Shown here: positions 4,249-14,561 of the stretch, one piece after another
How positions within the stretch are numbered: the stretch's first letter is position 1
How the letters are laid out: every line of letters starts with the position of its first letter
Origin: Pyrodictium abyssi
GTDB taxonomy: Archaea; Thermoproteota; Thermoprotei_A; Sulfolobales; Pyrodictiaceae
NCBI RefSeq assembly: GCF_036323395.1
Contig: NZ_AP028907.1
Coordinates: forward strand, 1,200,001-1,232,000
DNA: 32,000 nucleotides
Direction: 5' to 3'
The notes under the pieces: generated by a model
Database searches by the model: none
Told to the model about the DNA's origin: nothing
What the model saw: only the letters and a program-made list of their open reading frames with translations
Made by a program: the position numbers and the translations under genes

Positions 4249-5163
4249 GTGACATGTAAAATGAGCACTGCTTGTGAATACATGACTAGAGTTCCTGATA
4301 AGAGTGAACCGTTTATCTTGGTAAAGTTGCTTTACTCGTTTCGTTATGAGCCTGACTTGAAGCATACAGAAGGAGTAAAGTTCGAGGAAGCTATGAGAGA
4401 CCTAAGAAGTGAAGTTGAGAACGTTATATCGAGCCTCCGCACTAACTATAGTGTGATAGAGGAAGAGGAAGCAACCAGACTAGTTATAGTTCATCCTGTA
4501 AACCATTTTGCTATAACTATTAGGTACGATGCTGTGATTGTCGAACGTCATGCAGCATTCCTTGAAGAAAAAGAGTGCAACGAAACAATAAACCTTATGA
4601 GATACATCCTAGAGCTACTTGCCGGAAAGCTAATTAATTATTATAAGCAATCGATAGTTGAGGTTGGTGTTCGTGTTTCTCAATCATATATCATTGTGAA
4701 GGGTGAGAATAGTGGCTCCCCAGCGGCTAGGGATGAGCTTCTAAGAGGTCTAGAGGAAGGGACTGTTGTTAGCGTTCTTGCCAATACATTAAATTTAATG
4801 CTAAGCAACAAGAGTCTACGAGATAATACACGCGACTTGGAAGTTAACTGGGGTATTCGAGTAGAAGGTTTAGGTAATGCGAGATTTGTAATAAAGTTTA
4901 TACGGCTAATGCAGGGGAACACTCTTTCTCTTCTTCCCTTGCTGTTGATACCTATGGGTCGCCCGGATCATGGTGTTGAGATTTCTACCCAGTTAATTAT
5001 CGTGCCGAGAGCACAGCGGGATGTCGGAGATGTTATTAGAACCCTGGATAGAGCCGAGGATTGGGTTATTAGTACGTCCCGCCAGTTACATGCTGGTATA
5101 GTAGAGCTGTTGCGGAAGCTAGTTGGTAAGGTGATAGTAATGTATGCTCCCTTGCCTGGTTAG
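4249..5163 (+). CDS. Hypothetical protein (island orphan 2)
   Basis: 304-aa ORF from GTG 4249. ATG 4261 is the likelier start because AAGGTGA (4246-4252) precedes it by 8 nt. The ORF begins only a few nt after the upstream stop at 4243, so the two genes form an operon. I recognise no motif. Confidence 0.7.
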   Translation: MTCKMSTACEYMTRVPDKSEPFILVKLLYSFRYEPDLKHTEGVKFEEAMRDLRSEVENVISSLRTNYSVIEEEEATRLVIVHPVNHFAITIRYDAVIVERHAAFLEEKECNETINLMRYILELLAGKLINYYKQSIVEVGVRVSQSYIIVKGENSGSPAARDELLRGLEEGTVVSVLANTLNLMLSNKSLRDNTRDLEVNWGIRVEGLGNARFVIKFIRLMQGNTLSLLPLLLIPMGRPDHGVEISTQLIIVPRAQRDVGDVIRTLDRAEDWVISTSRQLHAGIVELLRKLVGKVIVMYAPLPG

Positions 5164-5540
5164 TTTTACTTTACTGGTGAACTGGGTACTGGCGCTAACG
5201 TGACCCAAGTGAGGAGGCTTTCCGCTTTTCTTTGGTGTGTTTACTGACGTGGTTATTGTTTAAGTGCTTGCTGGGTTTGCTGATTGATTCTGGGGCATGG
5301 GGTAGAAGTGACGGAGGGGCCTTGTCTGAAGTACCTTGGATGCATTTCTGAGTGCTCTAGAGTGTTCATCTGGGGTGGGAGAATGGTGCTTACGAAGTGT
5401 TGATGCTGGCTATCCTGGAGCGGGTGTTGGTATGTCATGTGCGCGCCGGGTCTGAGATAGCTATTGCATGAGTTTGTGTGCTGGCTTGTTACGGGCCATG
5501 AGTCTTCTAGGGCTTATTAGCCGTAGCTGCCAGGCTATAG

Positions 5541-11970: not shown

Positions 11971-12328
11971 AGCACCGAGATACACGAGCAGAGTCGACGC
12001 CAAAAGAACGCCCCTTCAGCCCTCGAACTCTTCCTCCAGGTCTATCTCCGCTAGCTCGCCGAGCCTAGCTCTTCCGGCCCTCAACTGGGCACGCCTCTCA
12101 CGAAGCTACCGGAGCACATTCTTCAGCTGCGCATCATAGGCCATAAGCTCCTCCCCCTGGGCCCGAGTAGAGCGTAGCCCCTCTATGACCATAAGCCTCG
12201 CAGAGAGCCCCCCGGGTACCACTATCTATCCCTTAGGTCCAGTCCTTCTGTCCTCGGTCTAACCAGGGGCCACACTGTGCAAGAGGCTAGCAGTATTCAA
12301 GGCTAAAATAGACATCCAGTAGCAGGGG

Positions 12329-12445
12329 CTAGTTGCTAGCCGTAGCAGGACAGTCCGAGCCCCCAGCCGCCCCAGGCGCTAACAGAAGGGCAATAACCGC
12401 GCCCAGCCATAGCCCGGCGCCAAGGAGTACAGCGTGTCTACCCAT
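12329..12445 (-). CDS. Possible 38-aa single-TM peptide
   Basis: My manual translation gives MGRHAVLLGAGLWLGAVIALLLAPGAAGGSDCPATASN*. Its ATG lies a few nt after the stop of the co-oriented membrane-protein gene. It is short, so support is weak. Confidence 0.25.
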   Translation of the reverse strand: MGRHAVLLGAGLWLGAVIALLLAPGAAGGSDCPATASN

Positions 12446-12452
12446 TTAGGCG

Positions 12453-12800
12453 CTATAGCTTCTCGTAGGCGTATCTACGCGCCTCCCCGACCAGCTCGTA
12501 CATTGATGCGAGAGCAAGCAATAACATTGCCGCCCCGGCTAGACCCGGGCCGTAGAGGAGGAAGCCTAGCAGCCCCAGCACCGCGACGAAGAGATAATGG
12601 GCCACTGCTAGCAGCTCTGGGACGCGGTCCCTGGGCAGCGAAGCCAGGAGCAGAATCGCGTAGTTTATCGCCGAGCCTATATTCCGGGCTATGAGGGAAT
12701 AGAGTAGCCCGGCTAGACCCGTCACTAGGCCTAGAGCAGCTAGAATACCTATCCACTGCCGACTATCCCTGGAAGTGCCCGTAGTACCCCCCGGGCTCAA
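12453..12800 (-). CDS. Hypothetical integral membrane protein
   Basis: 115 aa from a TTG start, with three or four clear hydrophobic helices (WIGILAALGLVTGLAGLLYSLI, AINYAILLLASL, LFVAVLGLLGFLLYGPGLAGAAMLLLALA). Confidence 0.55.
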   Translation of the reverse strand: MSPGGTTGTSRDSRQWIGILAALGLVTGLAGLLYSLIARNIGSAINYAILLLASLPRDRVPELLAVAHYLFVAVLGLLGFLLYGPGLAGAAMLLLALASMYELVGEARRYAYEKL

Positions 12801-13024
12801 CTAATGCAGCACCATATGAGACACATCGAATACAGGTCTGCATATCTTAAGTGATGTGCCCCAGGAACCGTAGACACCTTCGGATATCCTGCCGAGCGGG
12901 CTAGCCGTGGCCCGCTACCTGTGGCTAGCTAGCGCCCAGCGCTGCACCGCCGATATACTATCACGTTATCCTCGTATTATCGTGTCCGCTTCCTTTTAGA
13001 AGTAGCGCCATTAAACTCCAGACA

Positions 13025-13102
13025 ATGAGGTATACCTATCAAGTAGATGACGCTACGCCGGAGATAGAGCTAAGCAGCCATGCCAAGAGAAGGATTGAGT
13101 AG
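13025..13102 (+). pseudogene. 5' fragment of a DUF4258-like toxin gene, cut off by an in-frame TAG
   Basis: ATG 13025 encodes MRYTYQVDDATPEIELSSHAKRRIE, followed by TAG at 13100-13102. The same frame continues RGIAIEAVIDT into the ORF at 13136. LS.HA..R..(x)RGI is the N-terminal DUF4258 signature. Confidence 0.5.
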
Positions 13103-13135
13103 CGAGGCATAGCCATCGAGGCAGTAATAGACACC

Positions 13136-13597
13136 ATGCTTAGCCCTAGCTATGAACTATACGATGTAAAAGAGAGCACGCTCATATATACTTCGGAGAA
13201 GCACCGGCTGGTTGTCGCGGCTGTACGCCGTCCCGGAGACAAACTATACGTTGTCACCGTTATACCTGTGAGCAATCTTGAAAGCCTTGTGTCTAGGAGG
13301 ATTAGGAGGGCCGGTGGATACCGTTCGATAGAGGAGCTAGTAGAGGGCAGGATAATTGAGTACGACCCCGGATCCGATATCCTGGTTATACGTATACGCC
13401 GGGGCAAGGCTGTCGACGGCGAGTGGCTGGATAACGACGTGGTGCTACTGTATGGAGAGGATGGTAGGCTCCTCGAGGTGGAGGTCCACCGCGCCCGTGG
13501 TCGTGGCCTCGTGGAGGCCGTGCTGGAGCTGAGCGAGCGGCTAGGGCTCCGGCCAATGCGGCGGGCGGCTGAGGCTAGCCATGTAGAGGCTACGTGA
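13136..13597 (+). CDS. DUF4258-like (C-terminal part) fused to a DUF2283-like domain
   Basis: 153-aa ORF. The N-terminal part (LIYTSEKHRLVVAAVRRPGDKLYVVTVIPVS) continues the DUF4258 fold begun upstream of the TAG. The second part, IIEYDPGSDILVIRIRRGKAVDGEWLDNDVVLLYGEDGRLLEVEV, fits the DUF2283 pattern (YD.e.D.L.I....g......vd.d..G.lvgiEi). Confidence 0.65.
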   Translation: MLSPSYELYDVKESTLIYTSEKHRLVVAAVRRPGDKLYVVTVIPVSNLESLVSRRIRRAGGYRSIEELVEGRIIEYDPGSDILVIRIRRGKAVDGEWLDNDVVLLYGEDGRLLEVEVHRARGRGLVEAVLELSERLGLRPMRRAAEASHVEAT

Positions 13598-13652
13598 GCG
13601 CACAGAGGAGGGCCCCCGGGGCCGCGGGATACAGCATAACCTGCGGCATTGT

Positions 13653-14561
13653 CTAGGGCTGCTGCGTGCTCGTGGTCTGGTTGTCTTCTTTGGTGCTCTT
13701 TCTGGCTCGGGCTAGGCGGCTGCGTGCCTTCTCTAGTACTGGGCCGAGTAGCTCCATGTGCTGGTCTACCGTGTAGTGCCTGTATGGCGCTGGCCTGCCC
13801 CGGTACACAACCCTCTCGCTGAGCGTGGCTGAGTCTACCCGTGTTACCTCGACGCCGCTGCTGTCCAGGCGTATGACGTTGAAGGATGGTGATGTGCCTG
13901 CTTTTAGCTTGATTGTTGTCGCGGTCCCGGCGTGTAGTATCAGCATGCCGTTGAGCTCCCATACCCATGGTACGTGCTTGTGGCCCGAGAGCACTATGTT
14001 GACGCCTAGCCGGAGGAGTAGGTCTAGGAAGTCTCCAGCGTCGACTGGTATGTTTCTCTCACGCCCGGTCCCGGGCACCGGTACTAGGTGGTGGTGTAGC
14101 GCTACTATCTTCAGGCCGTTGCACTTCTCTAGGTTCTGCTCTACTATCCTGTACGCGAGCCTACCTATGTGGCCGTCGTCTAGGTCTGGCTCGCTCGAGT
14201 CGACGCCCTGTATGCATACCCGGCCACGGTGGCTTATGAAGGGGTAGCGTGTGCCGAATACGTGCTCGAAGACGACATAGCCCATGTTCCTCGAGTCGTG
14301 GTTGCCGGGCACGACGAGCAGCTCGGCCGTGTTTATCCTGGCTAGCAGGTCTATCGCCTTCTCGTACTCGTGTACAAACCCGTAGTCCGTGATGTCCCCA
14401 GTCACCACCACGATGTCCGGCTCCACTCTGTTCACATAGCCTATCACGTTCTCTGCCAGCTTTGGCGAGAAGACCCCGGCGCCTACGTGCAGGTCTGAAA
14501 GGTGTACTATCACTGTCACCACGTAGCCACCAGGAGCTATGCTCAGTATGATGATTTCCAC
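13653..14561 (-). CDS. Metallophosphoesterase (calcineurin-like)
   Basis: Motifs VIVHLSDLHVG, VVVTGDITDYG, VPGNHDS, ALHHHLVPVPG and LSGHKHVP are present. The start may lie a few codons downstream of the first candidate. Confidence 0.85.
   Translation of the reverse strand: MEIIILSIAPGGYVVTVIVHLSDLHVGAGVFSPKLAENVIGYVNRVEPDIVVVTGDITDYGFVHEYEKAIDLLARINTAELLVVPGNHDSRNMGYVVFEHVFGTRYPFISHRGRVCIQGVDSSEPDLDDGHIGRLAYRIVEQNLEKCNGLKIVALHHHLVPVPGTGRERNIPVDAGDFLDLLLRLGVNIVLSGHKHVPWVWELNGMLILHAGTATTIKLKAGTSPSFNVIRLDSSGVEVTRVDSATLSERVVYRGRPAPYRHYTVDQHMELLGPVLEKARSRLARARKSTKEDNQTTSTQQP

Follow-up and report, generated by a model that had tools for sequence, protein, structure and literature searches.

It is well known for type II toxin–antitoxin (TA) systems that the toxin is lost first while the antitoxin lingers, as losing the antitoxin first is lethal. 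The described systems closest to the locus analyzed here are the DUF4258/Ntox49 toxins of the BECR fold that have a downstream partner, fused BECR TA modules, and degenerate TA loci with orphan antitoxins. DUF4258 has been placed in the RelE/ParE superfamily, with its function listed as unknown (Gerdes 2025, PMC11980606). A 2026 preprint assigned it to a colicin-like branch and equated it with Ntox49 (bioRxiv 10.64898/2026.08.28.747851), for which a BECR fold and conserved His and Lys/Arg residues have been described (Zhang et al. 2012, PMC3482391). The partner of DUF4258 in the present locus is DUF2283, whereas the fused partner described in PMC11980606 is MqsA. No description of a DUF4258–DUF2283 pairing was found in the searchable literature. 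The labels DUF2283 and PF10049 are also used for unrelated proteins, so text searches return misleading matches: the 'DUF2283' of PMC4755241 is FseA of ICEMlSym and bears on another protein, and the citation of PF10049 in PMC6733907 concerns a calcineurin-like protein (a phosphatase) and is irrelevant to DUF2283.

The locus is located at positions 13025–13597 (plus strand) of the window, i.e. the whole 32,000-nt stretch of Pyrodictium abyssi DNA that was analyzed, and its lesions were read from the deposited assembly. As described in the initial annotation, one frame holds ATG 13025, TAG 13100–13102, ATG 13136, and the terminal stop, TGA 13595–13597. From ATG 13025 this frame runs for 25 codons (MRYTYQVDDATPEIELSSHAKRRIE) to the TAG and then continues as RGIAIEAVIDT-M(13136).... 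The DUF4258-like and DUF2283-like domains that had been proposed for it were both recovered when the read-through translation, with X at the stop, was compared with Pfam. DUF4258 (PF14076; cut-off 25 bits) matched residues 16–80 with 29.4 bits (E 1e-6; profile positions 1–70 of 71), in a match that spans the TAG, and DUF2283 (PF10049, 'YuzE'; cut-off 23 bits) matched residues 111–157 with 34.4 bits (E 2.5e-8). The similarity to the two families does not arise by chance. The ORF at 13136–13597 corresponds at 100% identity to the annotated 153-aa 'DUF2283 domain-containing protein' (P0001), which by itself matches only DUF2283 in Pfam and does not reach the DUF4258 threshold. The family alignment confirmed that the TAG falls within the conserved H-A-x-x-R-x-x-x-R-G-I signature, where it occupies the bracketed position of HAxxRIx[E]RGI and is flanked by two nearly invariant arginines. 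The toxin signature is thus severed by a nonsense change while the downstream ORF is still open, as had been noted from the sequence.

In its Pfam score, in the fold of its intact orthologue, and in the conserved His and Arg/Lys, the locus resembles DUF4258/Ntox49 BECR toxins with a downstream partner. However, the gene in the window cannot yield one polypeptide, as its start is lost, a TAG follows ancestral codon 15, and its tail is replaced. Like the fused BECR TA modules of PMC11980606, the locus has toxin and antitoxin in one frame with the toxin N-terminal, but the single frame of P. abyssi is the product of a recent lineage-specific frameshift, and the toxin portion is both interrupted and truncated. 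Degenerate TA loci and orphan antitoxins are matched in that every lesioned locus examined has a toxin lesion and in that the toxin evolves neutrally and DUF2283 is constrained. In contrast to orphan antitoxins, the DUF2283 of P. abyssi lacks a start of its own and forms the C-terminal part of a chimeric ORF that begins inside the dead toxin gene. The locus is very probably the decayed remnant of an overlapping two-gene DUF4258–DUF2283 module, in which the toxin was knocked out and a 1-nt deletion merged the two frames. It provides a clean, polarized example of TA-like decay, in which the toxin is lost first and an indel in the overlap merges the frames, and reveals no new mechanism; the small additions are the pairing of DUF4258 with DUF2283 in archaea and the convergence of frame-fusing lesions.

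Related loci were gathered by protein searches and a genome scan, after which the contigs were retrieved; two WD40 proteins in the phmmer list (P0008 and P0024) were set aside as spurious repeat matches. Intact loci consist of a DUF4258 gene of ∼95–104 aa whose 3′ end overlaps a DUF2283 gene of ∼80–100 aa in a different frame. This two-gene arrangement is present in the close loci L005 (103-aa toxin and 90-aa antitoxin) and L010/L011 and in the more distant L008/L009, the first pair of L012, and L014, and the split was confirmed by an HMM map of the six-frame translations of all loci. The comparison indicates that the module ancestrally consisted of two genes that overlap in different frames and that the P. 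abyssi fusion is derived. Since the single frame depends on a lineage-specific 1-nt deletion, the 'fusion' is a derived frameshift and not an ancestral fused gene, and the earlier reading of the locus as nonsense inactivation of a fused TA gene does not hold. The orthologues are split, and two large searches returned no intact DUF4258–DUF2283 fusion: no protein with an intact N-terminus and both domains was present among 35 matches in 1.84 billion representatives, and no PF14076+PF10049 architecture was present among the 120 matches listed of 502 in a DUF2283 profile search, all of which had PF10049 only. DUF4258–DUF2283 is documented here as a conserved overlapping gene pair in archaea. In L005, L010/L011, L008/L009, L012, and L014, DUF2283 directly follows and overlaps DUF4258, of which it is presumed to be the cognate antitoxin. 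Locus L012 contains two tandem DUF4258–DUF2283 pairs (1535–2635 and 4484–5426) followed by a HepT/Polbeta (MNT) pair and resembles a small toxin–antitoxin island; the second L012 toxin, of 70 aa, is encoded with its C-terminal tail in a different frame.

The closest relatives of the P. abyssi locus are L003/L004, which are syntenic with the window (FAA_hydrolase, the locus, Metallophos, Fer4, V4R, Lactamase_B, and Zip). Changes were polarized on the tree ((P. abyssi, L003),(L005, L011)), and those assigned to the P. abyssi branch are T13056C, G13100T, A13138G, Asp>Ser at 13175–76, the loss of 1 nt at 13308/13309, and T13326C. The features of the P. abyssi locus, all on the plus strand, are as follows.

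12990–13054, plus strand: upstream region conserved in orthologues (CTTTTAG..., CCATTAAACTCC, CAAGTAGATGACGCT); presumed promoter and 5′ leader.
13055–13057, plus strand: ACG at the ancestral toxin start (T13056C); ATG in L003, L004, L005, L011, and L002.
13055–13099, plus strand: N-terminal 15 codons of the toxin (TPEIELSSHAKRRIE) with the conserved His and Arg of the DUF4258/Ntox49 signature; Pfam profile position 1 begins here, and custom toxin HMM positions 2–15 lie at 13058–13099.
13100–13102, plus strand: TAG nonsense codon (G13100T); ancestral GAG (Glu), GAG in L005, L011, and L002, GAA in L003 and L004.
13103–13308, plus strand: rest of the DUF4258 toxin core (end of helix 1, helix 2, four strands, and C-terminal helix, assigned from AF2 modeling of an intact orthologue); toxin HMM positions 17–86 at 13103–13312, 95.6 bits.
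13136–13138, plus strand: start codon (ATG) of the annotated 153-aa ORF, created by a lineage-specific change from ATA (A13138G); Ile in L005 and L011, Thr in L003.
13136–13597, plus strand: annotated chimeric ORF, 153 aa, comprising toxin remnant, linker, and DUF2283; the remnant is without the first strand, helix 1, and nearly all of helix 2.
13175–76, plus strand: Asp>Ser (D41S) in the conserved EDT motif, a change on the P. abyssi branch.
13308–13309, plus strand: site of the 1-nt deletion; AGGAG[C/T]GGCCGG in all relatives, seen as an indel column of the alignment and confirmed with L011.
13325–13327, plus strand: TCG at the antitoxin's own TTG start (T13326C); TTG in L003, L005, L011, and L002, and the L005 gene call begins at this TTG.
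13340–13576, plus strand: DUF2283 domain, intact, five strands and a helix; Pfam 34.4 bits, antitoxin HMM 97.5 bits.

The upstream 25 codons, which the initial annotation had treated as one coding segment, are of two kinds: codons 11–25 (13055–13099) are homologous to toxin coding sequence, and codons 1–10 (13025–13054) correspond to the 5′ leader of the orthologues. ATG 13025 is not conserved; it is ATA in L003/L004, and an in-frame TGA separates this position from the true start in L005, L011, and L002. As this in-frame ATG might replace the lost start, the start lesion alone may not knock out the toxin. The His and two Arg of the signature (13079–13093) are located 5′ of the TAG and the beta-sheet core 3′ of it, so they belong to separate polypeptides. 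Through the 1-nt deletion, the conserved SGRW(I/V) tail of the toxin, which is kept even in distant homologues in the family alignment, was lost and DUF2283 was moved into the frame of the toxin remnant. With both start codons mutated and the frames merged, the bicistronic two-gene layout of the orthologues is absent from the window. In the course of decay, the toxin lost its start (ATG to ACG), and the GAG>TAG change severed the N-terminal helix that bears the conserved His and Arg. The 1-nt deletion in the gene overlap then accounts for removal of the SGRW tail and for joining of DUF2283 to the frame of the dead toxin core, and the new ATG 13136 together with loss of the antitoxin's TTG start leaves one 153-aa chimeric ORF, as publicly annotated. 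The locus is relevant chiefly to annotation: the public record omits both the upstream toxin pseudogene and the fact that the first ∼58 residues of the product are a dead toxin remnant.

A functional single-chain TA fusion, in which the TAG would be a sequencing or assembly error or a site of programmed recoding that yields a 190-aa protein, was considered and is highly improbable. Such a protein would fit the presence of a single frame with a single stop from 13025 to 13597, and fused BECR TA genes exist elsewhere, including 17 DUF4258-MqsA fusions (PMC11980606). However, the stop is not conserved: the comparison that the initial annotation had called for found a sense codon in four of four orthologous sequences and in more distant relatives. 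The codon specifies Glu in L002, L003, L004, L005, and L011, and every aligned relative carries a sense codon. A single frame also requires the 1-nt deletion, which is a second change specific to P. abyssi, and the orthologous start codon is mutated as well; several independent changes within ∼270 nt, especially substitutions, are unlikely to be errors. TAG is a standard stop and the commonest among the likely genes of the window (14 of 26), which argues that TAG 13100–13102 is a genuine stop, and no tRNA, Rfam family, or informative repeats were found in the window. In addition, the conserved toxin tail is missing, and constraint on the toxin is relaxed, as also seen in the Asp>Ser change in a conserved motif. 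Together, the lack of conservation of the stop, the need for a second lineage-specific change, and the relaxed constraint make sequencing error or programmed read-through very unlikely.

The fold of the toxin was modeled on an intact orthologue, P0005, for which AF2 gave a pLDDT of 83.5 and a pTM of 0.74. The model comprises a strand (residues 3–6), two helices (residues 8–16 and 21–29), four strands (residues 33–71), and a C-terminal helix (residues 75–85). Its best PDB neighbours in Foldseek are all BECR toxins, namely RelE1, HigB, YafQ, BrnT, Cami1, colicin D, and a CdiA-CT, with a probability of up to 1.00 and a TM score of up to 0.67, although E-values were weak (0.016–0.1). This result agrees with the assignments in PMC11980606, 10.64898/2026.08.28.747851, and PMC3482391. 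DUF4258 is presumed to be an RNase toxin of the BECR fold that resembles RelE and colicin D. Searches of PDB by sequence with the intact toxin or antitoxin returned nothing with single sequences and only chance-level matches with profiles, PADLOC gave no meaningful match to defence systems, and a tblastn search of phage and plasmid collections with the toxin gave no match. When the lesions are placed on the P0005 model with the alignment, the TAG maps to helix 1, past the conserved His. The annotated ORF begins at a position that corresponds to residue 28 and therefore lacks strand 1, helix 1, and nearly the whole of helix 2. In the AF2 model of the 153-aa product, pLDDT is 76–87 for DUF2283 (residues ∼72–136), 45–59 for the toxin remnant, and 31–45 for the linker. 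A fold search with this model returned noise only, which is explained by the low confidence outside the DUF2283 domain.

The pattern of substitutions differs between the two genes. In the non-overlapping part of the toxin, three synonymous and five nonsynonymous changes were counted on the P. abyssi branch (pN/pS 0.53) and four and 11, respectively, on the L003 branch (pN/pS 0.87), both indistinguishable from neutral. In the non-overlapping part of DUF2283, the counts were six and three on the P. abyssi branch (pN/pS 0.18, p = 0.015) and eight and one on the L003 branch (pN/pS 0.05, p = 0.0002). The pooled contrast between toxin and antitoxin on the two Pyrodictium branches, which is based on small counts, gave a Fisher p of 0.004. 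These values indicate that constraint on the toxin is relaxed and that DUF2283 has been under constraint during most of the period since the split. As they cover whole branches, continued constraint on DUF2283 after death of the toxin cannot be shown from them. In L003 (4245–4793) and L004, the toxin carries a 1-nt insertion that leads to an early end (…SRED*) and a Gly>Asp change in the conserved RGI motif, and DUF2283 carries +3 and +1 insertions, the latter of which is a frameshift; these lesions are common to two independent run assemblies. Lesions in both genes imply that at least one sister lineage can do without the antitoxin, and since L003 combines the strongest DUF2283 constraint with a DUF2283 frameshift, lesions can be very recent. 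Locus L002 (a Hyperthermus MAG with 5x coverage) hardly differs from L005 apart from the loss of 1 nt in the toxin.

Whether the surviving ORF still functions is the only point on which our explanation differs from one in which the whole locus is dead, DUF2283 included, and the 153-aa ORF is an annotation relic kept open by the short time elapsed and by GC-rich DNA. The latter is a serious contender with nearly an even chance of being correct. It would account for the lesions of L003/L004 in both genes, for the loss of the antitoxin's own start codon in P. abyssi, and for the poor structure of the toxin remnant and linker in the AF2 model. It also agrees with the lack of a convincing ribosome-binding motif 5′ of ATG 13136, where no good Shine–Dalgarno-like motif was found at the normal distance and the nearest GAGG is 14 nt upstream, and with a 272-aa antisense ORF over the locus, which shows that ORFs easily stay open in this DNA. 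However, the DUF2283 constraint was detected on the P. abyssi branch, where the toxin looks neutral, a new in-frame ATG arose just 3′ of the TAG, and an intact DUF2283 alongside a lesioned toxin is seen repeatedly, in several lineages (L001, L002, L006/L007, L015, and L016–18). Within our preferred reading, a decayed two-gene module, the chimeric ORF may still be expressed, and the DUF2283 part could plausibly still serve as an orphan antitoxin, at a likelihood slightly under one half, with the remainder falling on a relic that has not yet decayed.

Among the loci with a lesioned toxin and an intact DUF2283, L001 is the only other 'fused' match of the first protein search. When its protein was rebuilt with one G removed, it matched DUF4258 with 27.1 bits (profile positions 1–69) along with DUF2283. 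Comparison with the intact two-gene locus L014 (92% identical DNA) identified two insertions of 1 nt each in L001. The N-terminal motif is severed by one of them, which lies in a G-run, and the other, at the toxin 3′ end, fuses the core to the antitoxin frame. The two-lesion pattern of L001 is that of P. abyssi, reached independently. In L006/L007 the toxin core alone (HMM positions 26–83 in L006) is fused to an intact DUF2283; an ORF upstream in L006 was considered as a degenerate toxin N-terminus and found no support in Pfam, and only the core is recognizable by HMM. In L002 and L016–18, DUF2283 is not fused.

Two further arrangements were observed in the same set. In L015 (465–863), only the last ∼22 toxin codons are left, in frame with an intact DUF2283 (P0103), and no toxin N-terminus is recognizable upstream. 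In L016 (1352–1627), L017, and L018, the middle strand of the toxin (…KLAVIYERRGR…) is in another frame while both flanks are in the original frame; the sequence is identical in the three samples, and the toxin adjoins an intact DUF2283 and an ATPase_2/STAND-like gene.

The recurrence of such loci bears on a further explanation, in which the remodeling was adaptive: selection would have favored the frame-fusing deletion and the new ATG, keeping DUF2283 translated once its coupling to the toxin gene was lost. This presupposes a toxin-independent role of DUF2283, for example in neutralizing related toxins encoded elsewhere or on mobile elements, and we regard it as unlikely. It would explain why the same pair of lesions arose twice, as a nonsense codon and a −1 deletion in P. 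abyssi and as a +1 in the G-run and a +1 at the toxin 3′ end in L001, and it is in line with the further ORFs that join a toxin remnant to DUF2283 in L006/L007 and L015 and with the constraint on DUF2283 on the Pyrodictium branches. However, the loci were collected with a fused query and through the choice of DUF2283 proteins of unusual length, which introduces ascertainment bias. Moreover, L002 and L016–18 keep an unfused DUF2283, L003/L004 lost both genes, no other DUF4258 copy is present within the window, and Met at toxin codon 28 (ATG 13136) is a conservative change in a hydrophobic column. Because several loci were chosen as unusually long DUF2283 proteins, the recurrence numbers are not frequencies. 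The more general proposal that DUF2283 has repeatedly been rescued after death of a DUF4258 toxin by overlap indels that fuse a toxin remnant in frame (in P. abyssi and L001, and perhaps in L006/L007 and L015) is likewise doubtful. If it were true, DUF2283 would have a selectable role of its own in hyperthermophilic archaea, such as that of an anti-addiction factor against related toxins.

The surroundings of the decayed module in the window have several features of their own. The 272-aa antisense ORF (13150–13968, minus strand) overlaps the whole locus and the start of the metallophosphoesterase gene and is probably a G+C-rich artefact. Directly 5′ of the locus, ∼790 nt of P. abyssi DNA (12163–12950) have no counterpart in L003, which is syntenic elsewhere; no repeats were found at the flanks of this segment, and a 115-aa hydrophobic ORF inside it (12453–12800, minus strand) has no Pfam match. 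The toxin part of the locus (13000–13300) has a G+C content of 0.46–0.50, compared with 0.60–0.72 in the flanks, a composition that is compatible with a horizontally acquired module.
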